DNA from: Desulfobacula sp. | GTDB lineage: Bacteria > Desulfobacterota > Desulfobacteria > Desulfobacterales > Desulfobacteraceae | Length of the DNA: 64,000 nucleotides | Assembly: GCF_014237455.1 (NCBI RefSeq) | Contig: NZ_JABZFL010000015.1 | Location: forward strand, 4,403 to 68,402 | Reading direction: 5' to 3' | Shown here: in pieces, positions 7,782-31,970 of the stretch | Position numbering within the stretch: the first letter of the stretch is position 1 | Layout of the letters: the number at the start of each line of letters is the position of its first letter | Notes under the pieces: model-generated | The model's database searches: none | The model's input: the letters and a program-made list of their open reading frames with translations, nothing else | What the model was told of the DNA's origin: nothing | Position numbers and translations under genes: made by a program

Positions 7782-9064
7782 CAGTGTCCTGTTGTGCTTT
7801 TTTTATAAAAATCATTAACCGCTGTAAATGCGCTTAAGGCCGAGACTCCGGAACCTGATTTGAGTCTGACCCAGTCATTGTGGGCAAGAATTGTCCCAAT
7901 GGCATAAAGATTTTCATAAATAATAGCGCCATGTGTATCCACCGGCCTGAAAACACTGTCTGTTTCCACGCCTGCCGTGTTAATCAGGTGTCCCTGTTTT
8001 TCAAAAAAATCAAGGTGATGCCAAAGGCTTCTTTCGTCTGGCTGATAAACCGGCAGGTTGAATACGGTTTCCTGTATACGTCCTCTTTGGGCATGGAGTC
8101 CTCCTCCCGGGAATCTTCCCGTGGCAAGAATACCCCCCCTGGATCTTATTTGAGTTTCCATATTCTGATTCATTACATCTAAAACAAATTCAGATCCGTT
8201 AAATCGCGGTGGCTTGATTTTTGCCTGACTCAAAAAATGAACCTTATTTTTGGCCAGTTTTTTTTCAAATGCATTTTTCAGTCGTAACCCTGGAATGGAA
8301 GGCGGCATCATCGGAATTTCAAATATATCAAGACCGGTCATTTTTTCCAGACGGGTCAGTGCCTCAAGGCTTTTATTTACACCGCATACTGCAGGTATCC
8401 CCATCAGTTCAACTTTATCCAGGAAAGGAGAAATCTGTGTGGCAAGCTCTTTGAGAAAGGAAGAATCTTCAAACAGTGTTGCCAAATGTGTTGGATTTAA
8501 ATCGCCATTTTTTCCCGGAACCTCCACACTTAACGTAAGAATATTGGGATAGTTCTTTTTTAAAATATCCGCTATTTGTCTGGCACAAAACCCCTTTAGC
8601 CCTTTAAAGTCTACAAGCAATAAGTTTGTATCATTTTTAAGCAGACGGCTTTTTGAAATGGTTTCAGGAATCATACAGGTTGGTTTGAACGTACCGGCAG
8701 AGGTGAGAACAGATCTGTTCCCTTTCTCTGGTTTAATATAATTAAGTCCGGCTGATTGTAAAAACCGGGTTAAAAAATCAAAACTTTTCAATATGGCTTC
8801 CAGGCTGGTCTTTGAATACGGATGTCCGGGCATTTCTTTTTGCAATAAGCTCAGGCCTGTTAGAGGGTCCTGCAAGACTGTTCGTGAATGAAGCGGATAG
8901 ACACCCAGAAAATCAAACAAACCGCTTGCAAAATAAAGGTGTGATGAATTACCCGTCTGAACCGTTTTCAAGCCGAGAGCAGAAGCGCGAGCCGCAGCAA
9001 CCATGCCTGCAAAACCGGCCCCAATCACTGTTATGTCACATGTGATATATTTTTTATCTTTCAT
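7781..9064 (-). CDS. glpB: Anaerobic glycerol-3-phosphate dehydrogenase subunit B
   Basis: FAD motif 'VIGAGFAG', 'FEIPMMPPSIPGLRL', 'ILATGRFPGGGL', 'SGSGVS'; downstream of glpA. Confidence 0.9.
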   Translation of the reverse strand: MKDKKYITCDITVIGAGFAGMVAAARASALGLKTVQTGNSSHLYFASGLFDFLGVYPLHSRTVLQDPLTGLSLLQKEMPGHPYSKTSLEAILKSFDFLTRFLQSAGLNYIKPEKGNRSVLTSAGTFKPTCMIPETISKSRLLKNDTNLLLVDFKGLKGFCARQIADILKKNYPNILTLSVEVPGKNGDLNPTHLATLFEDSSFLKELATQISPFLDKVELMGIPAVCGVNKSLEALTRLEKMTGLDIFEIPMMPPSIPGLRLKNAFEKKLAKNKVHFLSQAKIKPPRFNGSEFVLDVMNQNMETQIRSRGGILATGRFPGGGLHAQRGRIQETVFNLPVYQPDERSLWHHLDFFEKQGHLINTAGVETDSVFRPVDTHGAIIYENLYAIGTILAHNDWVRLKSGSGVSALSAFTAVNDFYKKSTTGH

Positions 9065-17036: not shown

Positions 17037-17271
17037 AGATAATTTTCAGGTGTCCTGTTGATTTTTTTGTTTTGATATCATGTATCAACTTGGACATTTT
17101 TTTTCTTAGCTGCCATGAATCAGATGGAGGAAATTGAACCCGGGCCCATACTCATACTTCAAAGAAACAAACATCTGTTCGTCCTTTGTTTTTTTAACAC
17201 CCATCACAAAATTATGAAAAATACTTGAAAAATAAAATTTATCATAATATGTATACTTGAATTTAATAAAT

Positions 17272-17288
17272 TTAGACACGAAGTCTAA
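17272..17288. promoter_or_regulatory. Palindrome TTAGAC-N5-GTCTAA upstream of the TonB receptor (candidate metal-regulator operator)
   Basis: Perfect 6-bp inverted repeat in an AT-rich intergenic region. Confidence 0.35.
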
Positions 17289-17319
17289 TTGCAATTAATA
17301 TAAAATTTATTTAAAAACT

Positions 17320-17371
17320 AAACCGCAACAACAATAGTATTAAGAAAATACTAATGTGGGAGCGGTTTTTT
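17320..17371 (+). terminator. Long leader hairpin with U-tract just upstream of the TonB receptor RBS (possible attenuator)
   Basis: AAACCGC...AGTATT-aagaa-AATACT...GCGGTTT followed by a T run, about 25 nt before the ATG. Confidence 0.5.
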
Positions 17372-17395
17372 TGTTTATGACCTTGGAGGGTTACA

Positions 17396-19537
17396 ATGAA
17401 AAGATTAAACTTCGTGATAAATATACTTTTTTGTTTTTTTCTTGTTGCAAGTGCTAATGCAACAGAAGAAGGGGCTGGAATAATTGCTCTTGACGAAATT
17501 GTTGTTTCAGCTAATCGTATTGATAAAAAATTAGGTGCGACTCCTGCCAGCATCTCTATCATTACAGCTAAACAAATAAAAGATATGGGAGCAAAAAACA
17601 TAATTGATATTGTTAAAACCATACCGGGAGTAACTAAAGATAGTGATAGTAAGGAGAGAGTGACGATTCGCGGCAATAGGTCAGTGCAATCTGCCGGAGT
17701 TCTGGTGCTTGTAGATGGTGTGCCATTGAATTCAGGCCTTAGTAATTATGTGGAATTTGATGCCATTCCTGTTTCAGACATCAAACAAATTGAGGTTCTT
17801 CGTTCATCGGCTGCAATGATTTTTGGACCGGATGCAGCACGTGGCGCTATTAATATTATCACAAAAAAAGGAAAATCGGAAAAACCGCAAATTAAAACAG
17901 CAATATCTTATGGCTCGTGGAATAGTAAAAAAGTATCTGCAAGCATAGATGGAATGGTGAAAAATTGGGATTATCGTTTGGGGGGATCATTTTTCAATAC
18001 AGACGGTTATGAAAATGATGAAAAAAAGAGAAGTGCCGTTAGATTAAATACAGGCTATAATTTTTCAAACGATAGCAGGGTGGGGTTTAGTTTTTCACAT
18101 CAAGATACAGAATATGACACAATATATGCAAAAACAAAGTGGCAGATTGATAATTATAGAGAAGAAAGCATATTCCCAAAATCGGAAACGAATTCAGCGC
18201 TTGTTCATTTTAGAGAAAATGAGAATGAAAATTCGGCTTTCAGTATTGATTTTACTCATAAAAAGGATAAATATTTTGTAAACAGCTTAATCTCTTATGA
18301 TAAGACTGATCATATTTATCAATATCTGCCAAAGTGTTTAGATGCTGCTGCAAGCAAAACAAGCTCGTATTATGATTACAAAGAGGATAGAGACAGTGAC
18401 AGATCAGTTTTTAAGGCATCAGGCGGCTATTATTTAGATTTTGATAATGGCGCAAGATACACACCAACTTTTGGAATGGATTATGAAAAAAATTCATTTG
18501 ATCAATTGCGGACATATCCGTGGTCGCCGACACCGCTTTCTTCTTCTCAAACAACTGCTGTTAATAAAGCAAACATAGATTCCCAAAAAAAGCGGTTTGG
18601 TCTCTTTTTTGATAATGAAATAGCGTTTGAAAATTTCGAATTCAATTTTGCCATACGTGCTGACAAAGTAAAATATGACATAGAAAATCAAGTGTCGCAA
18701 AAAATAAGTAATGACATAACCGATTACAGTTGGGATATAACGCCTCTTTATTATTTAACACCTTCCTCATCACTATATTTTTCAGCTTCCAAATCATATT
18801 GGCATCCGGCCTTGATATATTATAAATACGCTATGGAAAAGGATTCCCCTTTAAATAAACCGGAAGATTTAAAATCGGAAGAGTACCTTACTTACGAGTT
18901 TGGTTATAAAGCTGCGTTTAATTCAAAACTAAATCTGGCTTTGTCGATTTATTTTATGAATGTAAAAGATAAATATATGTCTCTTTATGATGGAAGCTCC
19001 TGGAAAGGATATAAAAACATTGGCGATTCAGATCATAAAGGTGTTGAATTAGAAGCGAACGGAAAACTTTCTTCTTTTTTCGGCTATCGTTTTCAAGGAA
19101 CATATCAAAGTGCAAAATGGGATAATGCTAGTTTCAGGGCTTATGAATGGGGAGCGACTCAAAGCGATGACAGTTTGGAAAATTTTGATATCTCAGGAAA
19201 AACAGTCCCGCATGTCCCCAAATTCACTTCTACACTTGGTTTGGATTTCTATTTTTTAGAATTTTTCAAACTCAGTGCTGATGCAAATTATTATGGAGAG
19301 CAGGAAATTGATGTTCTTAATCGTTATCAAACAGATGCCTATGCAACTCTTGATTTAAGGCTTTCATACGATCGCAAAAATTATAAAATATGGTTATCTG
19401 CCTTTAACCTCTTAGACACAAAAGAAGAAAATATGTTTAATGAGCAAGGAAAAAGATTGTCAGATGGTTCCCCTGCTCATAATTATTACCCATTAGATGG
19501 CAGATACATAGAAGCAGGCATTAGTTTTACTTTTTAA
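17396..19537 (+). CDS. TonB-dependent outer-membrane receptor (BtuB/siderophore-like)
   Basis: Signal peptide, TonB box 'DEIVVSAN', plug 'LVLVDGVP...IEVLRSS..FGPDAARGAINIITKK', C-terminal Phe. Confidence 0.93.
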   Translation: MKRLNFVINILFCFFLVASANATEEGAGIIALDEIVVSANRIDKKLGATPASISIITAKQIKDMGAKNIIDIVKTIPGVTKDSDSKERVTIRGNRSVQSAGVLVLVDGVPLNSGLSNYVEFDAIPVSDIKQIEVLRSSAAMIFGPDAARGAINIITKKGKSEKPQIKTAISYGSWNSKKVSASIDGMVKNWDYRLGGSFFNTDGYENDEKKRSAVRLNTGYNFSNDSRVGFSFSHQDTEYDTIYAKTKWQIDNYREESIFPKSETNSALVHFRENENENSAFSIDFTHKKDKYFVNSLISYDKTDHIYQYLPKCLDAAASKTSSYYDYKEDRDSDRSVFKASGGYYLDFDNGARYTPTFGMDYEKNSFDQLRTYPWSPTPLSSSQTTAVNKANIDSQKKRFGLFFDNEIAFENFEFNFAIRADKVKYDIENQVSQKISNDITDYSWDITPLYYLTPSSSLYFSASKSYWHPALIYYKYAMEKDSPLNKPEDLKSEEYLTYEFGYKAAFNSKLNLALSIYFMNVKDKYMSLYDGSSWKGYKNIGDSDHKGVELEANGKLSSFFGYRFQGTYQSAKWDNASFRAYEWGATQSDDSLENFDISGKTVPHVPKFTSTLGLDFYFLEFFKLSADANYYGEQEIDVLNRYQTDAYATLDLRLSYDRKNYKIWLSAFNLLDTKEENMFNEQGKRLSDGSPAHNYYPLDGRYIEAGISFTF

Positions 19538-20539
19538 ATGAAAAAAAGCACTATTATAACATTCCTCATTCTATCTCTATTTTTTTTAACAGGTGAGCTG
19601 TTTGGTGAAATTATTCAAGATTCTACCGGCAAATTTATCACTCTCAACTCACCTGTTAAAAAAATAGTGGTTTTAACATCCGATGCTCTGGAAATTGTTC
19701 GCGCCATTAAAGCAGAAGAGTCTGTCATAGGCGTTTATTTTGAAGTTTCAAAAAAGCCTCTATTCTGGCAAGATTTAAAAAACAGAACAAAAGTCGGCAG
19801 TTGGAGAGAGGTTAATTATGAACTGATTGCAAAATTAAAACCCGATATTGTTATCTGTTATACAGATTATCCAGGCCGAACTCTAGAAAAAAAATTAAAC
19901 CCTTTCGGTATTAAAATCATACGGCTCAATTTTTATAAACTGAACACCATTGAAAAAGAGATAAAAACACTCGGGCATATTTTAGAAAGAGAGCAAGATG
20001 CGGAGAAGCTTATCGTATGGTACAGGGAAAATTTAAATTTTGTACAGGAAAAATTGAAACATATTGAATCGCGCCCAAGCGTTTATATAGAAGGCTATCT
20101 GAATTATAATACTGTTGGGAAAAATTCCGGGGGCAATGAAATGTGTCTGCTTGCAGGTGGAAACAATATAGCTTCAAATATTTTAGTGCCATATCCTAAA
20201 ATAACGTCAGAATGGGTTTTATCAAACAATCCGGATATTATTATTAAAGCGGTTGGAAAGAACAGCCGCACTTCGGCAGATGATTTAAGCTCCTTAAAAC
20301 AGCTCTCAAAAAAAATACAATCAAGAATACTCTGGGACAACATTGAGGCGGTGCATAATAACAAGGTGTTTTTAATTTCAAACGAAATATGGACAGGCTC
20401 AAGAACGCTTATCGGTTTAAGCTATATGGCAAAATGGTTTTATCCAAAACTTTTTAAAGATTTTGACCCTGAAAAACTGCACAAAGAATATTTTGAAAAA
20501 TTTCAGGGGATTAAATTTTATGGGACATACATTTATTGA
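19538..20539 (+). CDS. Class III (BtuF/FepB-like) ABC substrate-binding protein
   Basis: 'KKIVVL', 'NYELIAKLKPDIVI', 'LLAGGNNIA', 'WDNIEAVHNNKVFLI'. Confidence 0.88.
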   Translation: MKKSTIITFLILSLFFLTGELFGEIIQDSTGKFITLNSPVKKIVVLTSDALEIVRAIKAEESVIGVYFEVSKKPLFWQDLKNRTKVGSWREVNYELIAKLKPDIVICYTDYPGRTLEKKLNPFGIKIIRLNFYKLNTIEKEIKTLGHILEREQDAEKLIVWYRENLNFVQEKLKHIESRPSVYIEGYLNYNTVGKNSGGNEMCLLAGGNNIASNILVPYPKITSEWVLSNNPDIIIKAVGKNSRTSADDLSSLKQLSKKIQSRILWDNIEAVHNNKVFLISNEIWTGSRTLIGLSYMAKWFYPKLFKDFDPEKLHKEYFEKFQGIKFYGTYIY

Positions 20540-21564
20540 ATATCAGCAATAAATACAAAAAAAATATTAAAAAGAAGATTCTGTTATTATCTTTTCTTTT
20601 GCTCGTTATGGTTATCGCCGCATTAACCGGCATTTCCAATGGTATTGAATCTTTTGATTTTAAAAAATCGTTTATCGCCTTTTTTTCAGATGCCGGGTTG
20701 CAGCATAAGATTATCTGGGAATTAAGAGTCCCTCGTATCGTTATGGCAATTTTAACAGGAAGCGGGCTTGCGGTTGCAGGAACTGTTTTCCAGGCCATTC
20801 TTAAAAACCCCCTTGCCTCGCCATACACGCTTGGGACAGCATCCGGTGCCGGATTCGGGGCTGTTATTGCCATTTTTTTGCTTGATGCCGATTTTTTGTA
20901 CAAAGACTATTTTGTTGCCGGCAGTGCTTTCTTTTTTACGATGCTTTCATCTCTTATTATTTTAAGCATTGCAAAAATAAAAATTTTTACAAATGAAACC
21001 ATGATACTTGCCGGCATAGCCATAATGTTTCTTTTTTCATCCCTCAGCTCTCTTTTTCAATATCTGGGAACTATGGAGCAGGTTAATGAAATCGTATTCT
21101 GGTTTTTTGGAAGCTTATCTAAGGTTGGATGGAATGAAATAGGGATAGCATCTGTTATGATACTTCTTCCCATGCCCTTGCTTTTTAAATGGTCCTGGAG
21201 TTTTAATCTTATTGCGGCAGATGATGAATCTGCAAAAGCTCTGGGAATAGATGTTGAAAAAGTAAAAATATTTGGAATCGTGTGTGCCTCTTTAATTACA
21301 GCAGGAGCAATATGTTTTACCGGCGTAATAGGGTTTATTGGAATCGTCTCTCCACATATCGTTAGGATGCTTATTGGATACAACCACAGATTTCTATTGC
21401 CCGGTGCCGCACTTGTCGGGGCATCACTTGTATTGACAGCAGATACGGTCGGGAGAATAATATTACCCCCGCAAGTAATACCAATAGGAATTGTTACCTC
21501 TTTTATCGGGGTACCTTTTTTCTTCTATTTATTAATGAAAAGAACAAAAGACTATTGGAGATAA
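20536..21564 (+). CDS. FecCD/BtuC family ABC permease
   Basis: 'LRVPRIVMA', 'QAILKNPLASPYTLG', 'FTGVIGFIGIVSPH', 'IPIGIVTSFIGVPFF'. Confidence 0.93.
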   Translation: MNISNKYKKNIKKKILLLSFLLLVMVIAALTGISNGIESFDFKKSFIAFFSDAGLQHKIIWELRVPRIVMAILTGSGLAVAGTVFQAILKNPLASPYTLGTASGAGFGAVIAIFLLDADFLYKDYFVAGSAFFFTMLSSLIILSIAKIKIFTNETMILAGIAIMFLFSSLSSLFQYLGTMEQVNEIVFWFFGSLSKVGWNEIGIASVMILLPMPLLFKWSWSFNLIAADDESAKALGIDVEKVKIFGIVCASLITAGAICFTGVIGFIGIVSPHIVRMLIGYNHRFLLPGAALVGASLVLTADTVGRIILPPQVIPIGIVTSFIGVPFFFYLLMKRTKDYWR

Positions 21565-21565
21565 A

Positions 21566-22333
21566 TTGTTAGATATTCAAAATCTCTTTTTTAAATACAA
21601 AAAAAAATTTGTTCTTAATGATATTACATTAAGCATAAACAAAGGTGAGATCCTAAGCGTAATAGGGATTAATGGTTCGGGAAAAACAACACTTTTAAAA
21701 AGTATTGTTAACATAATAAAACCAACCAGGGGCAGGGTTTTAATTAAAGGCAGAGACAGTTCGAAAATAAGCAGATTAGAAAGAGCAAAGTATATTTCCT
21801 ATCTTCCTCAAAATATTCCTTTTAAATTTCCCATTACTGTTTTTGATGTTATTTTAATGGGAAGAATGCCTTATATCAAATGGAAGCCATCAGAACGAGA
21901 TATAAATGCAACTTCAGAAATTATCAAGTCTATGAATTTTGAAGACATTGCATTAAAAAATTTTGATCATTTAAGCGGCGGACAAAAACAAAAAGTTTTA
22001 CTGGCAAGGCTGTTTGTACAAAACACGGATTGTTTAATCCTGGACGAGCCAACAAGCAGTCTGGATTTGAAATATCAAATTCAAATTATGGAAATGATTA
22101 AAAATCTGGTTAAAACACAAAAAAAATCAGCTGTTATCGCCATACACGATTTAAACATGGCGGCACGGTATTCAAATAAAATTATAATGTTAAATTCAGG
22201 CAAGGTTTTTTGCTTTGACCGTCCGGAAAAAGTATTAACCAAAGAAAATATTAAAACAGTTTATAAAGTTCAAACTGTAATAAATAACGATAATGATTTT
22301 TTACAGATATCGCCAATCAAGGTGATTGATTAA
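21566..22333 (+). CDS. FepC/BtuD family ABC ATPase
   Basis: GINGSGKTT, LSGGQKQ, LDEPTSSLD, 'AIHDLNMAARY'. Confidence 0.93.
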   Translation: MLDIQNLFFKYKKKFVLNDITLSINKGEILSVIGINGSGKTTLLKSIVNIIKPTRGRVLIKGRDSSKISRLERAKYISYLPQNIPFKFPITVFDVILMGRMPYIKWKPSERDINATSEIIKSMNFEDIALKNFDHLSGGQKQKVLLARLFVQNTDCLILDEPTSSLDLKYQIQIMEMIKNLVKTQKKSAVIAIHDLNMAARYSNKIIMLNSGKVFCFDRPEKVLTKENIKTVYKVQTVINNDNDFLQISPIKVID

Positions 22334-22345
22334 AGGAGGAATAAA

Positions 22346-22912
22346 ATGGATTGGGATAAAGTAAAAGAAGATACGTATTATAAATGCAGGAAACTGGAAA
22401 GTGATGCCAGAAATGATGCAGATCCGGACAAATGGGAAGAATATGCAGATATTAAAAGTATTAAAGGCAGTTATGTCCTGGGAATTTATGGATATATGAA
22501 TGCGGCATCTTTATCAGAAGTCAAAAAAAAGAGTGATGAAGCAATCTTTTATTATAAAAAAGCCTTTAAACTTGCTGTTAAAGCTAACTACAAAGAGCTT
22601 ATTGTTATTTCAGGCTACAAAATGGCACAACTTTATGAACAGGAAAAAAAATGGACGGACTGTATAGACATATATGAAGAAGTTGCAGGATTTTGTGATA
22701 TGCAGGGAGAACATTTTCTATCAGCAGATGCGTATGAGCATGCCGCAGAAATGATAGCTTTATCAGGAAAAGATGCGGCGAATTATACAAAACCAATTGA
22801 TTTGTGGAAAAGAAATATTACCCATTGGGAAGAAGAAGACCATATTCACGATGCAGTATGGAGCAGAGAGCATATTGAACTTTATAAAAAACTGTTTGGG
22901 ATAAAAAAATGA
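22346..22912 (+). CDS. Hypothetical all-helical (TPR/SNAP-like) protein
   Basis: Strong RBS (AAGGAGG); repeats such as 'A..YYKKAF.LA', 'MAQLYEQ..KW..CI.IYEEVA', 'SADAYEHAAE'. Confidence 0.55.
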   Translation: MDWDKVKEDTYYKCRKLESDARNDADPDKWEEYADIKSIKGSYVLGIYGYMNAASLSEVKKKSDEAIFYYKKAFKLAVKANYKELIVISGYKMAQLYEQEKKWTDCIDIYEEVAGFCDMQGEHFLSADAYEHAAEMIALSGKDAANYTKPIDLWKRNITHWEEEDHIHDAVWSREHIELYKKLFGIKK

Positions 22913-23982
22913 TCGGTTTATTGTTTCACGGCCCCGAAGTTTTTGATTCTAACTGGGCCCAAAAAATTATTACTGCCATAAAAAAAACAGATTCTGTTAA
23001 GTGCGTCTTAGCCGGTACCATGGGACGGACTGCTGTTATAGACAGTGGGCTTGAAAATATTGAATTCTGGGATGAAACGCCAAGCAGTTGTCTTTCTCGC
23101 ATGGCTTTAAAACTAAAAAATATCATTATTGTTAATTACGGCAAGACGCTTCATTCAGGGTTAACTTTTGGCAATATGATTATTGAGCGTGCGGGTTTAA
23201 AAACACCTGTTCTTCAAATTGAATGCAGCCATCCCTGTTTTGTAGAGTGGAACGACACCAATAATCCTGTTATTATTTCTATTTTACAAAAAATGGGGAT
23301 TAAACAAAAAAAACCGCAAAAGAAAATTGATACCACCTCTCCTCTGGTGTGGAAAGAAAACAAAAAAACATACCGGAAAATAACAACAGCAAACATAAAT
23401 GATTTTATTCTTGTAGATGGCATTATAGTCGGCACGGCATTGAAAACAGAAATTGTATTGATATCTAAAGGAAAACATCTTATTGAGATTCAAGGTGCTC
23501 AAATCAAAGCGCATGGAATAGAAAAATTAGAAAGATTTGGGGGTATTAATCTAGAAACAATTAAACTTACAACATCATCTTTTCTCAGACGAACAGAGCA
23601 TATACCGCGAATAAAAAAGACAAACGGCACAAAAATCACATTTATAGATCATGCGGGAATGTATGTGTATAATTTAATAAATGACACAAAAGGGGTTGTA
23701 ACCGTTGGAGATGATACCACTTCCATCGTTGGTGATATTATGTATCGGTTTCAAATTCCTGTCATTGGTATTATTGATGGCGATGAAGATATTATTCACA
23801 ATAACGCGCACATCACACCCGGTTCAATAAAATTAACAGTCAAGGCAGACGACATATTCGGCTTAAAAGTTTTTAAAGAGATATTTAATAACAAAAAAAA
23901 TATAGAAATGGATTTCAAAGCGCTGAAAGATCAAATAATTAAAATGGCAAAAAAAGATTTAGTAAAAATCCAGCATTATTAA
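22909..23982 (+). CDS. DUF2117-like protein (family known mainly from methanogenic archaea)
   Basis: N-terminal 'GLLFHGPEVFDS...AGTMGRTAVIDSGL' and C-terminal 'VTVGDDTT...DIMYRFQIPVIGIIDGD' match my recollection of DUF2117/COG4069; ATGA overlap with the preceding gene. Confidence 0.75.
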   Translation: MIGLLFHGPEVFDSNWAQKIITAIKKTDSVKCVLAGTMGRTAVIDSGLENIEFWDETPSSCLSRMALKLKNIIIVNYGKTLHSGLTFGNMIIERAGLKTPVLQIECSHPCFVEWNDTNNPVIISILQKMGIKQKKPQKKIDTTSPLVWKENKKTYRKITTANINDFILVDGIIVGTALKTEIVLISKGKHLIEIQGAQIKAHGIEKLERFGGINLETIKLTTSSFLRRTEHIPRIKKTNGTKITFIDHAGMYVYNLINDTKGVVTVGDDTTSIVGDIMYRFQIPVIGIIDGDEDIIHNNAHITPGSIKLTVKADDIFGLKVFKEIFNNKKNIEMDFKALKDQIIKMAKKDLVKIQHY

Positions 23983-24016
23983 AATTTGATTGATTCGTTG
24001 CTGACCACTATTTTTC

Positions 24017-24886
24017 TTATTGTACATATGATTCCTTTAATACGTTTTCCAGAGCCTGGGGGATATGTTGGATAATTTCGCCAACCTGGGTTGCAGGGGT
24101 GGGCTTGGCAAAAAACCCGGCAAGGCGGTTAACTTTTGCTGCAATTTTTGCTGCTTTTAAAATTTGCATTCCTGTCCCTGCAAGCGCAGTAACAATGCCT
24201 GTAATCGTATCCCCTGTCCCCCCCATTGCCTCCATGGCTTCCGCTACAGGACTGTCTACAGAAAAAACAATACCACTTTTATCTGCAATAGAGTCTATTG
24301 CTCCTTTAACAAGCAAATTTTTTGCAGCATTTCCATGCAGGTATGCCCGGCTGATAAGATCAGGAACACTATTGTCATCGTGCAGGATAAACCCACGAGT
24401 GTAAAACGGATGAGGCGCGGTTTCATCAGCAAGAAACGAAAGTTCTCCCACATCCGGTGTAAAAAGGTCATAGGCTTGTGCCTGACCGCTCATTTTGGCA
24501 GCATACATAAAACCGGCATCTGCTATCAACACCGGTTTTTTTTCCAAATCATCGAGCATGAACATAATCCGGTTATGCCAGTCTACATCCGGCTGAAGAT
24601 AATGAAATACAATGGTATTAAAATCAATTTGGGGCCCGTTTTCAATCAGGTATTGATACAGTTTGCTGCTGCCGTGGCCAAGCTCTATATCCCCTGCGAT
24701 AAACCCGGTTATATCCGTTGGGCCCAGTACTTTCAAAGTATTGACCATAGCGCCTAAAAGCGCTGGGGTTCCCCGGTTCACCAGGACATGTTTTCCATCA
24801 ATAGTGAGCCTGTTTTCAACCATATCCACCCGGCCCACAGTCAAGGGAAAATTGGGGTCAGGGACTGTTCCTACCACTGCAAGCAT
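24017..24886 (-). CDS. Ribokinase-fold YjeF-C/NAD(P)HX-dehydratase-like protein (selenium-cluster associated)
   Basis: 'VNRGTPAL', 'ADAGFMYAAK', 'FTPDVGELSFLAD', 'LLVKGA.D', 'GGTGDTITG'. Confidence 0.75.
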   Translation of the reverse strand: MLAVVGTVPDPNFPLTVGRVDMVENRLTIDGKHVLVNRGTPALLGAMVNTLKVLGPTDITGFIAGDIELGHGSSKLYQYLIENGPQIDFNTIVFHYLQPDVDWHNRIMFMLDDLEKKPVLIADAGFMYAAKMSGQAQAYDLFTPDVGELSFLADETAPHPFYTRGFILHDDNSVPDLISRAYLHGNAAKNLLVKGAIDSIADKSGIVFSVDSPVAEAMEAMGGTGDTITGIVTALAGTGMQILKAAKIAAKVNRLAGFFAKPTPATQVGEIIQHIPQALENVLKESYVQ

Positions 24887-25419
24887 TTTTTCTGCATCTC
24901 CTTAAAAGCAAGGCCAAGGGCATAGCCGCAGAGGGTATGTCCGATATCCAGTGGATTGGGGGCCTGTGCCATAGTTTTGCCCACCAGTTTGAAAGCAAGA
25001 TACGGCACATCCGGGCAACCGCCTCCGGAAACATTAACGATCAACTGGGTCCTTTTTTCCACAGTAATTTTCATATTGGCAGCCCTGATCATGAGGAACC
25101 GGCCAAAATCCTTTATATGAAAAAGGTCCACCGGCTGGAGCAGGGGATCGGTAACCGGAACTGTCTCTATGGGCGGAATTCCTGCCTTTTCAAGGAGTCG
25201 AAGGATATTGAGCTCCTGGATCAGGGGAAACTCAATCACGAGATCACACCCGCTTTGGATCTCCGGTGGCGGACCCATCACCCTGATTTCCCAGTCATTT
25301 GCCAATAAAATTCTTTGAGCGGCAATGACCTCGCTTGTATTTTCAAACACAAGGATACCCAGTTCTGCCCGGGAAAGATTATCCTGTTTTTTTTCTTTGA
25401 ACAGCTTTAATTTAAACAA
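24871..25419 (-). CDS. DUF3343-domain protein with C-terminal Cys-containing domain
   Basis: 'LVFENTSEVIAAQRIL...PPPEIQSGCDL', then 'SGGGCPD...TLCGY'. TTG start at 25419 after AAGGGG chosen to avoid overlap with yedF. Confidence 0.7.
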   Translation of the reverse strand: MFKLKLFKEKKQDNLSRAELGILVFENTSEVIAAQRILLANDWEIRVMGPPPEIQSGCDLVIEFPLIQELNILRLLEKAGIPPIETVPVTDPLLQPVDLFHIKDFGRFLMIRAANMKITVEKRTQLIVNVSGGGCPDVPYLAFKLVGKTMAQAPNPLDIGHTLCGYALGLAFKEMQKKCLQW

Positions 25420-25435
25420 AATGCCCCTTACGTCA

Positions 25436-25654
25436 TTAGTCCTTTGCAATGGTAATTTGGTATTCATCCCCCTGCTGCTGGATATCCGTGACAGTGTATT
25501 TTTTGCTTTCCGCAGCCCTTGAGACATTCTCTTTTGAAGCATCCGTATCCACCAGCACAATTATCGTGCTTTCATTCCCTGATTTAACGGCTTCCATAAA
25601 CATTAACACTGGCTGAGGACATGAAAGCCCTCTTGCATCAATCGTTATACTCAC
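25436..25654 (-). CDS. yedF: TusA/SirA-like sulfur/selenium carrier
   Basis: 'IDARGLSCPQPV', 72 aa, directly downstream of yedE. Confidence 0.85.
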   Translation of the reverse strand: MSITIDARGLSCPQPVLMFMEAVKSGNESTIIVLVDTDASKENVSRAAESKKYTVTDIQQQGDEYQITIAKD

Positions 25655-25656
25655 GG

Positions 25657-26751
25657 TTATACTCCTTTGATATTTTTTCTCATTGTAAATCCGATAAACA
25701 GGCAGACGACAAGACCGACTGCTACAGCAGCAATTCCATGGGGACCGACACCTTTGGGTGAACTTGCCAGTCCGAAATTATGCGCAAAGGCTGCGCCCGT
25801 AATCATCCCAAGGACAAAGACGGCTGCATCACCATCCCCTTCACCGGAAAGAAACAACTGACGTCCGGGACATCCTCCTGCCAGGGCAAAAGCAAGGCCT
25901 GCAAGCACCATTCCTGCAAAATTCCAGACCTGCATGGTATGAGCAACCGGCTGTCCTTCAAAGCCGGGATTGAACTGGCCCAGAACAAGATTTGCAGCAA
26001 ATGCGAACAGTGCAAGAGAAATCAATCCCGTTAAAAGATGAACATGGCGAAACAGGATCAGGTCACGAAAAGCACCCATGGTACAGAACCGGCTTCTCTG
26101 GGCTGCAAACCCGATCACAAGCCCGATCACAAGGGATATAAATAATGGTGCATGCATGGCCCCGGGACCTTTAAGGCTGTATAACAAAACCCCGCTTTTA
26201 TTTTCTCCTGCCACCTGGGGGTAAAGAAACATCAGGCATAAAAAACCCAGCATGATAAGCGGGAACAACAGGCCGACACTTTTATGGGTTGCCTGGCTTC
26301 TGCCCAGGTTGTACCCGTTTTTTAAAAATAGAACACCGATCCAGATCCCCCCTGCTAGTCCCAGCAGGCCAATAATGGCATTGCCATCCCCACCGGCAAG
26401 GCGAAGCAGGGCACGCCAGGGGCAGCCTAAAAAAACCAGGGCTCCGATCATGGCAAAAACACCCAGAATAAACCTGGCAATGGGTGCAGATCCGCTACGG
26501 GGTTTAAATTCCTTAAAAGTTAATGCCGCAATTAAAGAGCCTAAAACAAAGCCAATAATCTCCGGACGTATATATTGCACCACGCCTACCCTGTGAAGCC
26601 CTAAGGCTCCTGCAATATCCCTTTCAAAGCATGCCACACAGATCCCCATGTTTCCCGGATTTCCCATTTTCTGCAAAATGCCTGCAAAAATACCGATAAC
26701 CGCGCCAACACAGATAATTCCCCAACGACCAGCAAAAAAGTTCTTAGTCAT
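25657..26751 (-). CDS. yedE: YedE/YeeE-family putative selenium transporter
   Basis: 'GNPGNMGICVACF.RDIAG', 'FLGCPWR', 'RSRFCTMG', 'LAGGCPGRQL'; multi-TM. Confidence 0.88.
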   Translation of the reverse strand: MTKNFFAGRWGIICVGAVIGIFAGILQKMGNPGNMGICVACFERDIAGALGLHRVGVVQYIRPEIIGFVLGSLIAALTFKEFKPRSGSAPIARFILGVFAMIGALVFLGCPWRALLRLAGGDGNAIIGLLGLAGGIWIGVLFLKNGYNLGRSQATHKSVGLLFPLIMLGFLCLMFLYPQVAGENKSGVLLYSLKGPGAMHAPLFISLVIGLVIGFAAQRSRFCTMGAFRDLILFRHVHLLTGLISLALFAFAANLVLGQFNPGFEGQPVAHTMQVWNFAGMVLAGLAFALAGGCPGRQLFLSGEGDGDAAVFVLGMITGAAFAHNFGLASSPKGVGPHGIAAVAVGLVVCLFIGFTMRKNIKGV

Positions 26752-27244: not shown

Positions 27245-28135
27245 TTAAAGACTGGTGCTTAAAAGGATAAAGCCTAAACAAGCCACTAATAAGCCTGCCA
27301 TGGCTTCAATCATATGTTCAAGTAGGATTAATATCCTGCTGTGATTGGAAACCAGAGAGAGGACAGCGGCTTTGCCTGACATGCCTGCTATGACAATCAA
27401 AGTAATGGTTGAAGCCATGCCGAAAGAAATGGTTGTGCCCAATAAAATTCCCAGCCAGGTTAAATCCAAAGATATGGCAAACAACATCACCATAACCACA
27501 CCGGGACATGGGATGATACCCACTGCGATTGCTGTTATAAATGGATTGGCAAACAGTTTTGTACGGGGTTCATGATGTGCTGTTTTATTTTTGTTCCATT
27601 TATAAATGGTTCTGGAAAATATGATGAGTCCAAGGCAGGTGATTAAGGAATAGCTGATGATTTGAGTGATATTTGTCATGGTTTCAAGTGAGGTCGAAAT
27701 GCTTGTTTGCAATAAGTATTTTACGGATAGAACAAAGAAAATACCTGAGAATCCATGGGTTAATGCCACAAGGTTGCCGAAAATTAAACCCTGAGGAAAA
27801 CTTGGTTTACAAGACAGAATATAGGATAGGGCGACGGCCTTTCCATGGCCTGGGCCGGCTGAATGGATAACGCCATAGGCAAAGGCTGAAGCGATAAGAA
27901 CAAAAAAGGGTGCCGGACTTTTTTTTGTTTTGGCCTCACGTATCAAACTGGACATCTTTTCTCTTAACTTCTGCTGCCAGTAAATTATTTTAACAAAGAA
28001 TTTGCTTTTTACCAATGGCTTAGACGTCATGTGATGCTTTTCAGGTTTTGTTGTAAAAGGGTTATCGGCATTTGTTATTGAAGTGGATAAAAAGACTGCA
28101 CACAGCAAAAAGACGACTATGGATATTTTGTTCAT
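27245..28135 (-). CDS. NiCoT/RcnA-family (ZevB-like) Ni/Co/Zn transporter
   Basis: 'YGVIHSAGPGHGKA', 'GIIPCPG'; TGATG coupling with the DUF1007 gene. Confidence 0.85.
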   Translation of the reverse strand: MNKISIVVFLLCAVFLSTSITNADNPFTTKPEKHHMTSKPLVKSKFFVKIIYWQQKLREKMSSLIREAKTKKSPAPFFVLIASAFAYGVIHSAGPGHGKAVALSYILSCKPSFPQGLIFGNLVALTHGFSGIFFVLSVKYLLQTSISTSLETMTNITQIISYSLITCLGLIIFSRTIYKWNKNKTAHHEPRTKLFANPFITAIAVGIIPCPGVVMVMLFAISLDLTWLGILLGTTISFGMASTITLIVIAGMSGKAAVLSLVSNHSRILILLEHMIEAMAGLLVACLGFILLSTSL

Positions 28136-28740
28136 CACTTTAACTTGAAATCCAGAAATAATGCCCAAGGGTTCACCATGTCATAGTATATCAAGGTAGC
28201 TTTGTCTCTTTTTATGTGAGCATTGACTTTAAATTTGTTATTGTTTTCAATTGCAAAAGGACGTTGTTCTGTAAAATAAATGGCAGAGTAGTAATTTGGG
28301 TCATAAAAAGCAATGTTGATGTGTTTAAAATTTTTTATGGCACTGACATGGCAGGGGATGAAAAAATCATAAATCAATTTTCCGTTTTCAAGTTTTGCAG
28401 AAAAGTCAGTCACATATTTAACTTTAAAAGGAGTACCGTCAATTTTTACATAAATAAAATAATTGAATTCGGCAATATAGGAAAAAGCTTTTTCCCTGAT
28501 GGATGTCACCTCGGTTTTTTCAAGAGTTCCATTTTTATTCAGGTCATGATCTTCGCAGATCATGTTTGAAAACATGTCATCAAATTTCCAGTATACATTA
28601 AAACCTGCTACTCCTTTTTCATCAAACACGACCGTCAGGTTCTGGGCAATAAAAACATGGGGATGCCCCCAGGTGATTTCGATGAGGATAAACAGGAGCC
28701 AGGAAATCATAAGAACAGATTTAATAACCATATGTTTCAT
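28135..28740 (-). CDS. DUF1007 family periplasmic metal-binding protein (ZevA-like)
   Basis: Signal peptide followed by 'HPHVFI', 'W.FDDMFS', 'FYDPNYY'. Start placed at ATG 28740. Confidence 0.85.
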   Translation of the reverse strand: MKHMVIKSVLMISWLLFILIEITWGHPHVFIAQNLTVVFDEKGVAGFNVYWKFDDMFSNMICEDHDLNKNGTLEKTEVTSIREKAFSYIAEFNYFIYVKIDGTPFKVKYVTDFSAKLENGKLIYDFFIPCHVSAIKNFKHINIAFYDPNYYSAIYFTEQRPFAIENNNKFKVNAHIKRDKATLIYYDMVNPWALFLDFKLK

Positions 28741-28906
28741 ATATTTTGCGCCAATATTTTTTATAGCCTTTGTGTTTTTTGACCCCTTATATAGTATGGG
28801 TAATATAAAATTGAAATAGAAAAAAAGATGTTCTCTTATTCCTGGAACGCGGCAATCAGGCGGGAAAAAAGTTAGGAGGGGGCTTACTTTTATTGGATTG
28901 ATGAGG

Positions 28907-29326
28907 TCAATTTGTGATCGGCTCAATGTCACAATGGGGGCAGGTATCGATTTTTTTTACAAATTTTTTAAATTTACTAAAAGTCTGTTTATTCATTGCA
29001 TGTTCCATCTGGCAGGCTGTGCGGTCGGCTGTTTTCTCATCAACCTCCAATATCCTGAAAAGAAAATCCTTTAGGAAAATATGACGGCGTTCTATTTCCA
29101 AAGCAATTTTTTTGCCTTCAGGAGTTAAGGTGACATATCCATAGGGCTCATAGTTGATAAGTTTGTTGATAGCAAGCTTTTTTAACATCCCTGTAACAGA
29201 CCCTCTTTTAATGCCCATCTTTTCGGCAATATCCTTGGACCGGGCCACGGTTTTTGTTCTCTGCAATTCAAGTATGATTTCAAGATAATCTTCAAGGCTT
29301 TCTGAAAGTTGATTTTTTTTAGCCAT
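28907..29326 (-). CDS. DtxR/MntR family metal-dependent regulator
   Basis: 'SESLEDYLEII', 'ARSKDIA', 'SVTGMLKKL', 'YEPYGYVTLT..G', 'ACQMEH'. Confidence 0.92.
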   Translation of the reverse strand: MAKKNQLSESLEDYLEIILELQRTKTVARSKDIAEKMGIKRGSVTGMLKKLAINKLINYEPYGYVTLTPEGKKIALEIERRHIFLKDFLFRILEVDEKTADRTACQMEHAMNKQTFSKFKKFVKKIDTCPHCDIEPITN

Positions 29327-29417
29327 GTCTCTTCTCCCTTAAGTTTATTGTCATATGTTTATATTTAAATATTTAGTAAGTCAAATATTTATTTTATATA
29401 GACAGCTCATTTTTTTA

Positions 29418-29452
29418 TTGACAACAATAAAAGTTAGGTATAATAAACTTTT
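29418..29452 (+). promoter_or_regulatory. feoA sigma70-like promoter overlapped by inverted repeat AAAGTT-N10-AACTTT (candidate DtxR-type operator)
   Basis: TTGACA at 29418-29423, TATAAT at 29439-29444 (15-nt spacer, short); palindrome spans the -10. Confidence 0.45.
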
Positions 29453-29497
29453 TATTTATCGAAAAACTTAATTATATATTCAAAACAAGGAGGCTAT

Positions 29498-29731
29498 ATG
29501 GGAAGAATAAGTTTAAGGCAAATGCAGGTTGATCAAACCGGTACGATTATTTCTGTTAAAGGTACAGGAGAGCTTGGCAGGCGGATCAGGGACATGGGAC
29601 TCATTCCCGGCAAGAAGATTAAAGTTCAGGGGCGAGCACCTCTCCATGATCCGGTTTCCCTCAGAATCATGGGATTTACACTAACGCTTCGGAACAATGA
29701 AGCCGACCATATTGAAGTAGAGGTGCAATAA
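29498..29731 (+). CDS. feoA: Ferrous iron transport protein A
   Basis: 'RRIRDMGLIPG', 'RAPLHDPV', 'LTLRNNEA..IEV'. Confidence 0.93.
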   Translation: MGRISLRQMQVDQTGTIISVKGTGELGRRIRDMGLIPGKKIKVQGRAPLHDPVSLRIMGFTLTLRNNEADHIEVEVQ

Positions 29732-29732
29732 G

Positions 29733-31970
29733 ATGAGTACAGCAATCGCACTGGCAGGGAACCCGAATTCAGGCAAAACAACTCTTTTTAATGAATTAAC
29801 AGGCGCACGGCAGCATGTTGGCAACTATCCCGGTGTGACTGTTGAAAAAAAACAGGGAACATGCGTAAGTGATTCCGGGAAATTTGACATAGTTGATCTT
29901 CCCGGAACCTATTCTTTGACAGCCTATTCCCTGGAAGAAGTGGTTGCAAGAGATTTCCTTGTAAATGAAAAACCTTCCATGATTGTCAATATTGTTGATG
30001 CATCCAATCTTGAAAGAAATCTTTATCTTTCGGTCCAGTTTATGGAAATGGGGATTCCTGTAACCATTGCATTAAATATGATGGATGTGGCAAAAAAGCG
30101 GGGTATTAAGATTGACATTAAAAAATTGTCAAAATTATTGAATGTTCCTGTTGTTCCGACCATTGCCCGAAGTGGTGAAGGGAAAAAAGAACTGCTGCAG
30201 ACCATTGCTTCAAATGTAAACGGTAAAGCCGAGCCTTTAACGATTTCCTATGGACGCGACATTGATACTGCCCTTGATGAAATGGAAGAAATTATCCAAT
30301 CTTCTACTTTTTTAACAGCAAGATACAGGGCAAGGTGGACGGCCATCAAATATCTTGAAAAGGATCAACAGATTGTTGAGTCCGGCAAAAAGGAAGATAT
30401 GAAGGTTGCTTTGCAACTGGAAGGGATTGTTAAAAAAGTTACTGGCCATCTTTTGGCAACCCTTGATACCCATCCTGAAGGAATCATTGCAGATCACAGG
30501 TATGGATTTATCAATTCAGTTCTAAAACAGAACGTGATCGGCTATTTCCAGGACAAAAACAGGCTGCAATTGTCAGATAAAATTGATAAAGCAGTGACTA
30601 ACCGATTCCTGGGACCCATCATCATGGTTGGCATTTTGATGGGGCTCTATAAATTTACATTTACCTATAGCGAAATCCCAGTGGGATGGTTTGAAAGTTT
30701 TTTCGGGTGGATTGGAGGAATTGCAGATAATGCCTTGCCTGAAGGGCATTTAAAATCCCTTGTTATTTCGGGGATAATTGACGGAGTGGGCGGGGTTCTC
30801 GGATTTGTGCCTTTGATTATGTTCATGTTTTTAGGGATTGCTTTTCTTGAAGACTCGGGATACCTGGCACGAATGGCATTTATGCTGGACAGGGTGTTCA
30901 GAATGTTTGGACTCCATGGAAGTTCAGTAATGGCATTTATTGTATCAGGCGGTATTGCAGGCGGTTGTGCAGTCCCCGGTGTTATGGCCACAAGAACCCT
31001 TAAATCTCCTAAAGAAAGGCTTACAACGCTTTTAACCGTTCCATTTATGAATTGCGGTGCCAAACTTCCAGTGTATGCATTGCTGGTTGCTGCATTTTTT
31101 TCAAAAAATGAAGCAACGGTGATGCTGCTCATTACATTGATCTCCTGGGTTGGCGCATTGTTGGTGGCCAGGCTTTTGCGGTCTACCGTTATAAAAGGAG
31201 AATCAACGCCCTTTGTCATGGAACTTCCTCCATACAGGATGCCGACAATTAAAGGCATTTTGATTCATACCTGGGAAAGAACCTGGCAGTATATTAAAAA
31301 AGCAGGCACTGTTATTTTAGGCATTTCCATTGTTCTATGGGCCATGATGACATTCCCGGGCCTTCCTGAGACAAAAACTCAAGAGTTTGAAAGCCTGCGA
31401 TTATTTATTATGTCGGGTGTGCCGGCTCGGGTTTTGAGTGAGATTGAAACCCTTGAAACTGAAACCATAAAAGGAGATAACCTGAAGGTCACACGTAAAT
31501 TGTCTGCAAAGGCAATGGTGGTAAAGAAAAGCCTTGCCCAGGTTGATTTTGATGAAGCCCATGCAGGATTGAAGAATTCCATTGCAGGCCGTATCGGTTC
31601 TTCCCTTGAAGGGATAACAAAGTTTGCAGGGTTTGACTGGAGAACAAATATTGCCCTTGTGGGCGGGTTTGCAGCAAAGGAGATCGTGGTATCAACACTT
31701 GGAACGGCCTATTCCATTGGTGAAGTAGATCCGGAAGAAACCACCTCCCTTTCTGACAGATTAAAAGTAGCAGAAGGTTGGGGTCCCTTGACGGCATTCA
31801 GTCTGATCATATTTACCATTTTTTATGCTCCTTGTTTTGTTACGGTGGTCTGTATTGCAAAAGAGGCTGGCTCATGGAAATGGGCGGCTTTTTCTGTTGT
31901 GTTTAATACGGTACTTGCCTTTGGGTTGTCAGTACTCTTTTACCAGGTTGGGTCTATTGTCTTGACATAA
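29733..31970 (+). CDS. feoB: Ferrous iron transport protein B
   Basis: G1 GNPNSGKT, 'VGNYPGVTVE', DLPG, NMMD, gate 'PFMNCGAKLPVY'. Confidence 0.96.
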   Translation: MSTAIALAGNPNSGKTTLFNELTGARQHVGNYPGVTVEKKQGTCVSDSGKFDIVDLPGTYSLTAYSLEEVVARDFLVNEKPSMIVNIVDASNLERNLYLSVQFMEMGIPVTIALNMMDVAKKRGIKIDIKKLSKLLNVPVVPTIARSGEGKKELLQTIASNVNGKAEPLTISYGRDIDTALDEMEEIIQSSTFLTARYRARWTAIKYLEKDQQIVESGKKEDMKVALQLEGIVKKVTGHLLATLDTHPEGIIADHRYGFINSVLKQNVIGYFQDKNRLQLSDKIDKAVTNRFLGPIIMVGILMGLYKFTFTYSEIPVGWFESFFGWIGGIADNALPEGHLKSLVISGIIDGVGGVLGFVPLIMFMFLGIAFLEDSGYLARMAFMLDRVFRMFGLHGSSVMAFIVSGGIAGGCAVPGVMATRTLKSPKERLTTLLTVPFMNCGAKLPVYALLVAAFFSKNEATVMLLITLISWVGALLVARLLRSTVIKGESTPFVMELPPYRMPTIKGILIHTWERTWQYIKKAGTVILGISIVLWAMMTFPGLPETKTQEFESLRLFIMSGVPARVLSEIETLETETIKGDNLKVTRKLSAKAMVVKKSLAQVDFDEAHAGLKNSIAGRIGSSLEGITKFAGFDWRTNIALVGGFAAKEIVVSTLGTAYSIGEVDPEETTSLSDRLKVAEGWGPLTAFSLIIFTIFYAPCFVTVVCIAKEAGSWKWAAFSVVFNTVLAFGLSVLFYQVGSIVLT

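Follow-up and report, generated by a model that had tools for sequence, protein, structure and literature searches.

In a 64,000-nt window of the genome of Desulfobacula sp. (nt, nucleotides; this window is the whole stretch of DNA that was analysed, and all unprefixed positions are numbered within it), six open reading frames on the forward strand form an operon at 17396-23982 that joins the parts of a TonB-dependent importer to a gene of the family DUF2117. The first gene (17396-19537, +) encodes a TonB-dependent outer-membrane receptor of 713 amino acids (aa) with a signal peptide (Plug, E 4e-23). It is followed by a class III periplasmic substrate-binding protein (SBP; 19538-20539, +, 333 aa, Peripla_BP_2, E 2e-24), a FecCD/BtuC-type permease of a type II ATP-binding cassette (ABC) importer (20536-21564, +, 342 aa, full-length FecCD match, E 1e-87) and the importer's ABC ATPase (21566-22333, +, 255 aa, ABC_tran, E 5e-31). 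The last two genes encode an all-helical, TPR/SNAP-like protein of 188 aa with weak TPR/SNAP Pfam signals only, here named TPR188 (22346-22912, +), and a cytoplasmic DUF2117 (PF09890/COG4069) protein of 357 aa (22909-23982, +, Pfam E 4.3e-98). The gene junctions measure, in order, 0, -4, +1, +12 and -4 nt, and the start codon of the DUF2117 gene overlaps the stop codon of TPR188 (ATGA). A preliminary description, made from the letters of the DNA, had already listed six tightly coupled genes of these families and had taken the last one for DUF2117. All open reading frames and Pfam domains are indeed found at these positions, and the last gene matches the DUF2117 profile over its full length (positions 2-325 of 325; 328.7 bits vs. 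a cut-off of 25).

The receptor shows the features of its class, namely a Plug domain, a signal-peptide-like N-terminus and an alignment to TIGR01783 over residues 49-675, which despite its length stays below the cut-off of that model; PF00593 is present in the receptor's orthologues. The genes for the SBP, the permease and the ATPase are adjacent or overlapping, as expected of a type II (BtuCD/FecCD-class) ABC importer. However, none of the four transporter proteins reaches an NCBIfam equivalog cut-off for cobalamin, heme, siderophore, dicitrate or F420-0, and the cargo is therefore not readable from homology. The equivalog scores for the cobalamin system are 112 vs. a cut-off of 600 for BtuB, 65 vs. 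234 for BtuF, 227 vs. 461 for BtuC and 126 vs. 281 for BtuD, so the four proteins do not qualify as BtuBFCD; the permease reaches about half the respective cut-offs with the BtuC, FhuB and FecD equivalogs, and the top NCBIfam model of the ATPase, a heme ABC ATPase, is below threshold as well (228 bits vs. a cut-off of 261). With the heme and siderophore equivalogs, as with BtuB, the receptor scores far under the thresholds. Among solved structures the receptor is closest to CirA and BtuB, in the plug region only. The top relatives of the SBP in the PDB are the uncharacterised binding proteins 4ovk, 9hrj and 6b2x; it also matches BtuF and the nickel-binding CeuE/NiuB from Helicobacter pylori (4ino, E 7e-10), the latter match being weaker than those to several uncharacterised SBPs and comparable to that with BtuF.

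These scores bear on a reading in which the operon serves corrinoid or cobalt salvage, with a BtuBFCD-like system feeding a new cytoplasmic corrinoid-processing protein. The BtuC models are the permease's top NCBIfam matches, the plug resembles that of BtuB, and CbiQ/ECF components (ECF, energy-coupling factor) occur in the corresponding locus of Latescibacterota described below. However, the BtuB, BtuF and BtuC scores lie far under their cut-offs, a cobalamin riboswitch is absent from the window and from seven related loci at the Rfam gathering threshold, with none at E ≤ 1 between 16800 and 17500 either, and the regulator found in relatives is NikR, a nickel sensor. I consider corrinoid salvage quite improbable.

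The DUF2117 family is small, 1.84 billion proteins yielding 225 representatives at 50% identity, and its ten longest members have no second Pfam domain, thus no fusions were seen. In the literature no published function was found for DUF2117, COG4069 or MMP0143, the DUF2117-type gene of Methanococcus maripaludis, for which COG4069 is given among the methanogen-specific proteins of Gao & Gupta 2007 (PMC1852104). The AlphaFold2 (AF2) model of the window's protein (pLDDT 90.5) has one alpha/beta lobe at each end of the chain, the two being separated by a small beta-barrel. Foldseek retrieved no relative from the PDB with E < 1e-3, giving generic Rossmann-type or GT-B-like partial matches with a TM score < 0.25, and profile searches against the PDB sequences returned nothing significant. 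An internal duplication of the two lobes was considered and is not claimed here (hhalign P = 0.037). Among 111 bacterial and archaeal sequences, the residues H7, D13, G36, D45, S59, R156, K200, R227, H248, GDDTT 267-271, R280, DGDxD 290-294, S306 and DD 314-315 are 85-99% conserved, and the window's protein carries these family-wide residues. As they are conserved in Bacteria and Archaea alike, the archaeal and bacterial proteins appear to share one putative active or binding site, which would be rich in carboxylates, histidines and basic residues.

Part of this conserved region recalls the NAD kinases. Weak Pfam matches to the N-terminal NAD_kinase model were obtained for 40 of 86 family members (best E 2e-4), always on the one stretch in which GDDTT and IPVIGIxDGD are set against GGDGT and PvlGiNxG of the kinases. 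As the pairing of a transporter with a kinase is a common salvage logic, DUF2117 could be a small-molecule kinase of the NAD-kinase or diacylglycerol (DAG)-kinase type that traps an imported vitamin-like compound by phosphorylation. However, an hhalign comparison with 20 NAD kinases gave a probability of 0.6%, Foldseek did not rank NAD kinases, the glycines of GGDGT are replaced in DUF2117, and Toprim-type models match the same stretch weakly. The classification as an NAD kinase was therefore rejected, and a kinase of this kind seems to me very improbable.

The partner protein TPR188 belongs to a family of 123 clusters, the members of which are each about 185-200 aa long and carry no additional domains. 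Among the invariant residues are F-x-AADA-x-EHAAE (residues 124-135), Y147, P150, W154, N157, W161, D169 and WS172-173; the invariant surface motif comprises F-x-AADA-x-EHAAE and a Trp-rich C-terminal helix pair. The AF2 model consists of nine helices (pLDDT 95.9), and Foldseek recovered generic TPR scaffolds only (LGN, SNAP/Sec17, kinesin light chain). As the resemblance is to generic TPR/SNAP scaffolds, TPR188 is probably a protein-protein adaptor. The single TPR188 gene seen without DUF2117 lies at L128:849-1409, in a metagenome-assembled genome (MAG) labelled Euryarchaeota; it encodes a 186-aa homologue with 44% identity and no DUF2117 gene follows it, the binning of this contig being uncertain.

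Bacterial homologues of DUF2117 were found in Desulfobacteraceae, Latescibacterota and Elusimicrobiales, on contigs labelled Brachymonas and in one 'Corynebacterium' assembly. The tallies that follow cover 45 bacterial-type loci, which are incompletely dereplicated. In what I call type A (Desulfonema ishimotonii, Desulfosarcina ovata and several metagenome contigs), the order is receptor, SBP, FecCD, ATPase, a Gate permease of about 318 aa, the 188-aa protein and DUF2117. Type A' is the same without Gate and comprises the window, a second genome of the same genus (G1021) and locus L018; a Gate gene is missing from the window and from its whole genome. Type B, of the Elusimicrobia-like loci (Elusimicrobiales), consists of NikR, receptor, Gate, a 185-aa protein and DUF2117. 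Type C, of Latescibacterota, contains a receptor, an ECF ATPase, CbiQ, a 232-aa protein of unknown function, the 188-aa protein, DUF2117 and a FolT-like S component. The Brachymonas-like contigs have a divergent arrangement, in which receptor-SBP-FecCD-ABC-Gate-ExbB-ExbD faces the pair of 185-aa protein and DUF2117, and in the 'Corynebacterium' assembly, deposited as Gram-positive, a receptor-less SBP-FecCD-ABC set faces the pair.

The inner-membrane transporter thus varies between loci, from a FecCD-type ABC importer to an ECF transporter, Gate alone or ABC plus Gate. The other neighbours are not conserved (methyltransferase, GAF, isochorismatase, CorC, CarD and others). Of the bacterial loci, 20 of 25 have Gate and 22 of 24 long ones have a TonB receptor, and TPR188 immediately precedes DUF2117 in 31 of the 32 loci with sufficient upstream DNA. 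The Gate permeases, of 316-320 aa, score 27 to 34 bits with Pfam Gate (PF07670), around its cut-off of 29.6 bits, and I infer that they act as importers. Whether the two accessory genes stay linked to importers in other genomes had been set as a test in the preliminary description, and they do so for several transporter types. Judged from gene order, the conserved unit is the 188-aa/DUF2117 pair, usually with Gate, joined to the host's own envelope transport machinery. A pair that stays constant while the transporter changes behaves as expected of cytoplasmic proteins acting on an imported substrate.

Two of these loci deserve separate mention. The 'Corynebacterium' locus (L125, GCA_024587035.1, labelled Corynebacterium cystitidis, 4896-9622) has its 184-aa/DUF2117 pair beside SBP-FecCD-ABC without a receptor, with an integrase, a ParA-like gene and a resolvase at a distance of 3-7 kb; the locus may represent a mobile element, or the contig a contaminant. 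Beside the Brachymonas-like module, at L126/L127 10464-16558, a second receptor gene is found together with FmdE-domain, Peripla_BP_2, TrmO_N-domain, ABC and FecCD genes, a further uncharacterised cluster for the uptake of a metal or vitamin.

The nature of the substrate is suggested by the regulation of the relatives. The type B regulator has the ribbon-helix-helix (RHH) and NikR_C domains and passes the NikR equivalog NF003381 (163 bits vs. a cut-off of 105), and nikR is adjacent to the module in at least eight loci. The published delta-proteobacterial NikR operator is GTGTTAC-[N13/14]-GTAACAC, with a reversed variant (PMC545781). With up to two mismatches, such boxes are located directly before nikR (L002, L040, L041, L046), before the receptor gene (L002, L041, L026) or before Gate (L027, L034), and in each of these loci they occur nowhere else; L026 and L034 carry boxes without a nearby nikR. 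At the same stringency, 15 boxes were counted in 436 kb of bacterial loci vs. 2 in 482 kb of archaeal loci, neither of the latter being near DUF2117. The module is thus preceded by nikR genes and/or NikR boxes in Elusimicrobia-like and Latescibacterota-like loci, and as a consequence it is predicted to be under NikR/nickel repression in at least two bacterial lineages. In the DUF2117 tree, the window's clade has the Latescibacterota-like group as its nearest outgroup, and the window's pair is 40-55% identical to the members under NikR control. The host itself needs nickel, as it has genes for the large subunits of at least two [NiFe]/[NiFeSe] hydrogenases. A large-subunit gene of the [NiFeSe] type in the window's genome (G000:C96:20644-21948) has one in-frame TGA, presumably for selenocysteine.

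The linked transporters, that is, a TonB receptor, a class III SBP with FecCD or an ECF system with a vitamin-type S component, carry chelates or vitamins and not free ions, which makes chelated nickel the most economical cargo. I therefore propose, with a probability of about 0.5 and from comparative sequence evidence, that the operon imports a metal chelate, most likely one of nickel, in a TonB-dependent manner, and that this uptake is joined to a two-protein cytoplasmic module of archaeal descent. In this proposal a chelated nickel species would cross the outer membrane through the receptor; the class III SBP would bind the nickel chelate, and FecCD and the ATPase would import it, with Gate acting in addition or instead in most relatives. 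TPR188 would dock or position DUF2117, probably at the transporter, and DUF2117 would bind the cargo and then release the nickel or hand it on. The preliminary description had suggested a metal chelate or tetrapyrrole as cargo, naming corrinoid and heme among the candidates. The first part of this suggestion appears likely, with nickel as the metal according to the nikR genes and boxes of the relatives; corrinoid and heme find no support in the equivalog scores, nor in the eight loci, in which no cobalamin riboswitch was found.

Several observations weigh against nickel as the cargo of this operon and against the role assigned to its last two genes. There is no nikR in the window or in its 97.8%-complete genome (tblastn and an NikR_C hidden Markov model), and no NikR box in the 64-kb window at up to two mismatches or in the 3.5-Mb genome at up to one; upstream of the operon none appears even at up to three mismatches, and the type A relatives have no NikR boxes either. 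Nickel is therefore assigned to the window through homologues that are 40-55% identical. Furthermore, the receptors are not orthologous between types, as type A orthologues score 868-965 bits vs. 33-62 bits for the receptors of NikR-type loci, so the cargo could differ between types. The archaeal DUF2117 loci have no 188-aa partner, Gate, receptor or transporter and no nearby NikR boxes, from which it follows that the basic activity of DUF2117 would not be transport as such. Searches with DUF2117 revealed neither a metal-binding motif nor a known fold, the His-rich tail of TPR188 seen in Desulfobacterales is not conserved elsewhere, and the literature yielded no experiment on any member of the DUF2117 family.

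Alternatively, the operon could encode an ordinary importer for a ferric siderophore or heme, with the last two genes as passengers unrelated to transport. Generic siderophore, heme and B12 models do give the receptor, SBP, permease and ATPase their highest scores, and the operon lies in a metal-uptake neighbourhood with a DtxR-like repressor, FeoB and NicO/DUF1007. However, the pair is found beside receptors or importers across at least four phyla despite the changing transporter type, it is translationally coupled to the operon, no iron or heme equivalog cut-off is reached, and the relatives have NikR boxes and not Fur boxes. In my view these observations make a passenger role, and with it a plain iron or heme importer, rather improbable.

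On the archaeal side, the DUF2117 Pfam model matches Methanocaldococcus jannaschii and Methanosarcina acetivorans among 14 control genomes. In 301 sampled genomes of the phylum to which Methanococcoides belongs, DUF2117 and McrA of methyl-coenzyme M reductase (MCR) occur together in 139 genomes, DUF2117 alone in 23, McrA alone in 27 and neither in 112 (odds ratio 25, Fisher's P 9e-33, a statistic that ignores phylogeny and the incompleteness of MAGs). This agrees with the earlier notion of a family at home mainly in methanogenic archaea. However, 27 of the 166 MCR-positive genomes do not have DUF2117, complete genomes among them, which indicates that the protein is dispensable for MCR.

In about 15-17 loci of the Methanobacteriales type, the gene order is a Nob1-like PIN gene, DUF2117, mmp2 (AIRS), mmp3, more mmp genes and a radical-SAM gene of the nifB type. 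The same mmp cluster encodes additional proteins of MCR activation (Ramirez-Amador et al. 2025, PMC12176620), a study in which DUF2117 is not discussed. In Methanothrix-like and other lineages, DUF2117 instead comes last in a same-strand trio, after a protein of about 150 aa without a Pfam match (motif PLIVLPKGHPASPRLKTVVS...THPEQD) and DUF2098; this trio was observed in L055, L061-L064, L067, L069, L071, L079, L085, L089 and L092-L095. The two upstream genes were considered as archaeal counterparts of TPR188, and this was rejected as they show no similarity to the 188-aa protein.

A maximum-likelihood tree places the named bacterial DUF2117 sequences in one clade (SH-aLRT 100), which sits among archaeal branches under midpoint rooting. 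The window's gene had been called archaeal-type on first inspection; the tree is consistent with one transfer from archaea to bacteria, followed by spread among bacteria.

The association with MCR raises the question of whether the nickel complex could be coenzyme F430 itself or another nickel tetrapyrrole, a special case of the nickel reading that the preliminary description had already named. Under nickel scarcity, bacteria of anoxic habitats (Desulfobacterales, Elusimicrobia, Latescibacterota and the Brachymonas-like group) would pirate F430 or a nickel-tetrapyrrole precursor from methanogens or anaerobic methanotrophic archaea (ANME), and the archaeal-derived DUF2117 would bind or process F430 and recover its nickel. 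Several observations fit, namely the odds ratio of 25 for DUF2117 and MCR in the 301 genomes, the position of DUF2117 immediately upstream of the mmp2-mmp3 cluster ending in nifB in the Methanobacteriales-type loci, and the nickel control in relatives. All transporters linked to DUF2117 in bacteria suit bulky chelates or vitamins as well (TonB receptor, type II ABC, ECF with a FolT-like S component), and HmuS sets a precedent for a de-chelatase within a TonB uptake operon (PMC12583661). However, no literature was found that links F430 to any uptake system, and no tetrapyrrole-binding fold or motif was detected. Furthermore, the small Gate permease is the sole inner-membrane transporter in many bacterial loci, and the co-occurrence with MCR is uncorrected for phylogeny and has the 27 exceptions among the 166 MCR-positive genomes. 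I regard both the piracy of F430 and a role of DUF2117 in its handling as unlikely. If true, DUF2117 would be the F430-handling protein of the cytoplasm that has long been missing, in methanogens it would serve the trafficking or recycling of F430 beside the machinery for MCR activation, and with the bacterial operons a piracy of F430 across domains would be seen for the first time.

To return to uptake of chelated nickel by the window's operon, its control probably resides in the leader, which is 360 nt long and has a GGAGGG ribosome-binding site. A 17-nt palindrome, TTAGAC-ACGAA-GTCTAA (17272-17288, +), is evident from the letters themselves, folds into a hairpin of 6 bp and is overlapped by a weak promoter-like match (TAGACA-17-TAATAT, 9/12); it may be a DNA operator or an RNA hairpin. 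Further downstream, a long terminator-like hairpin with a run of seven U (17320-17375, +) ends about 20 nt before the start codon and is a candidate attenuator. The RNA of 17270-17400 folds with -28.3 kcal/mol (z = -3.7), and none of 200 shuffled sequences was as stable.

Palindromes with an A-N-GAA centre and variable arms, downstream of a TTGACA promoter, are present in Desulfonema, Desulfosarcina and the metagenome relatives. The type A relatives have a conserved hairpin of about 55 nt with a U-run at the same place in the leader (L017:3233-3294, L021:3225-3286, L008:3209-3269, L020:3286-3347, L007:3314-3375), with compensatory changes in 5 of 22 pairs across five sequences. Its outer stem reads AAAGCCAnGAAGGC...GCCTTCnTGGCTTTTTT and its inner stem GACTGGAy...GTCCAGTT, and CAnGAAG recurs both here and in the palindromes upstream. 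A covariance model built from this hairpin recovers every type A locus, including loci on which it was not trained, such as L018 and, twice, G1021 (E 6e-7; L124:6614-6668 and L124:6252-6313, the latter on the reverse strand), but misses the window's own diverged hairpin. The hairpin spans several genera of Desulfobacterales, and the second copy in G1021 lies before a divergent, unrelated receptor gene. No Rfam family was found in the leaders of the window or its relatives. The type A hairpin may be a new attenuator or riboswitch-like element, and attenuation-type control by some effector is a lead here rather than a finding. A c-di-GMP-I riboswitch (42 bits, gathering threshold 35) was seen at L017:2438-2512 on the reverse strand, about 0.8 kb upstream of the type A receptor operon of that metagenome contig.

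The operon lies in a low-GC accessory block at 17040-24000, strand not assigned, for which GC content, synteny and patchy occurrence suggest horizontal acquisition. That the stretch would be richer in AT than its neighbours had been noted by eye, and GC is 0.33-0.36 in each 1-kb window from 17 to 24 kb vs. 0.41-0.44 upstream and 0.44-0.48 downstream, the shift coinciding with the ends of the operon. Four of 51 genomes in the window's own genus and four of 301 in its own order are DUF2117-positive, and in a phylum sample of 401 genomes the window's own genome (3.48 Mb, 97.8% complete) alone scores above the DUF2117 cut-off. A 93%-identical fragment exists in a MAG deposited as 'Deltaproteobacteria bacterium'.

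In another genome of the genus, G290, the sugar-ABC and haloacid dehalogenase (HAD) genes upstream of the operon are syntenic (72-89% amino-acid identity), and this shared gene order breaks off with the HAD stop codon, where the low-GC block begins on the left; a clean empty site is not demonstrable in G290, which is syntenic on the left flank only. In G1021, the same six-gene architecture is found at the same right flank, with operon proteins that are 52-71% identical to those of the window and right-flank genes that are 80-95% identical (L124, G1021:C53:29000-46500, vs. window 17396-26751). This contrast suggests that alleles were replaced, or that the operon was inserted repeatedly, at a single site. 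Yet another version of the operon, with an extra Gate gene, occupies a different location in a third genome of the genus. The break of synteny in G290, the divergence in G1021 and the third version elsewhere are better explained by repeated transfer or replacement than by vertical descent. The operon thus has the deviant composition and patchy distribution of a genomic island, without its flanking mobility genes or tRNA: neither Rfam nor the neighbouring genes revealed an integrase, transposase or tRNA flanking the block, and border direct repeats were not searched. By composition and distribution, the operon is a horizontally acquired accessory unit, in accordance with the chimeric island that had been suspected at the outset.

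The block is immediately bordered by genes for a HAD hydrolase, a carbohydrate-kinase-like protein, an Se/S carrier and YeeE, the last two at 24871-26751 (-). Between 3 and 8 kb downstream of the operon (27245-31970) lies the metal-homeostasis neighbourhood with genes for an NicO-like permease (27245-28168, -), DUF1007 (28135-28932, -), a DtxR-family repressor (28907-29326, -) and a full FeoB (29733-31970, +); part of it, at 28-29 kb, is likewise low in GC (0.34). A group II intron at 45916-47778 (-), with Rfam matches to D1-D4-3, D1-D4-1 and domain V/VI, adjoins another low-GC stretch at 44-46 kb (GC 0.31-0.35).

DUF2117/COG4069 is a signature protein of methanogens, and the bacterial loci give a first testable clue to its function, namely the handling of nickel. 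It seems that bacteria captured this protein, added a dedicated adaptor and wired both to TonB-dependent uptake, under control of NikR in relatives. The fate of chelated nickel at the inner membrane and inside the cell is poorly known, and with the system proposed here the acquisition of nickel by bacteria would gain a new cytoplasmic step and perhaps a new family of permeases.

In H. pylori, the NikR-regulated TonB receptors FrpB4 and FecA3 and an importer with a class III SBP and FecDE (NiuBDE = CeuE-FecDE) take up chelated nickel, and by analogy this is the closest characterised system. Both systems consist of a TonB receptor, a class III SBP and a FecCD-type ABC importer, NikR control is found in the relatives of the operon, and CeuE/NiuB is weakly represented among the PDB relatives of the SBP. 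However, H. pylori has no DUF2117, 188-aa partner or Gate, the window has no NikR control, and the similarity is weak, the window's receptor matching solved structures in the plug only. Known nickel receptors are listed in PMC11247825.

The heme operons with HemS/ChuS, or with HmuS of Bacteroidota (PMC12583661), have the same logic of a receptor and an importer followed by a cytoplasmic protein that recovers the metal, but they are built from unrelated proteins, the window's operon reaches no heme equivalog cut-off, and the metal indicated in its relatives is nickel. BtuBFCD shares the three transporter families, and its BtuC models score the window's permease highest, whereas all Btu equivalog scores of the window are far under the cut-offs and the cobalamin riboswitch is missing. 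With the MCR-activation cluster (M. marburgensis MTBMA_c04360-c04410 plus nifB, PMC12176620), the likeness is that archaeal DUF2117 lies directly upstream of mmp2-mmp3; however, DUF2117 was not reported as a subunit of the purified complex (PMC12176620), and bacteria with DUF2117 have no mmp or mcr genes nearby. The permease of the relatives has a match to Gate, the fold of the metal-ion pore of FeoB, but it lacks a G domain and is presumed to act as an importer. What is already known, therefore, is the TonB-dependent, NikR-controlled uptake of chelated nickel, and what is undescribed is a cytoplasmic pair of archaeal descent that accompanies it together with Gate.

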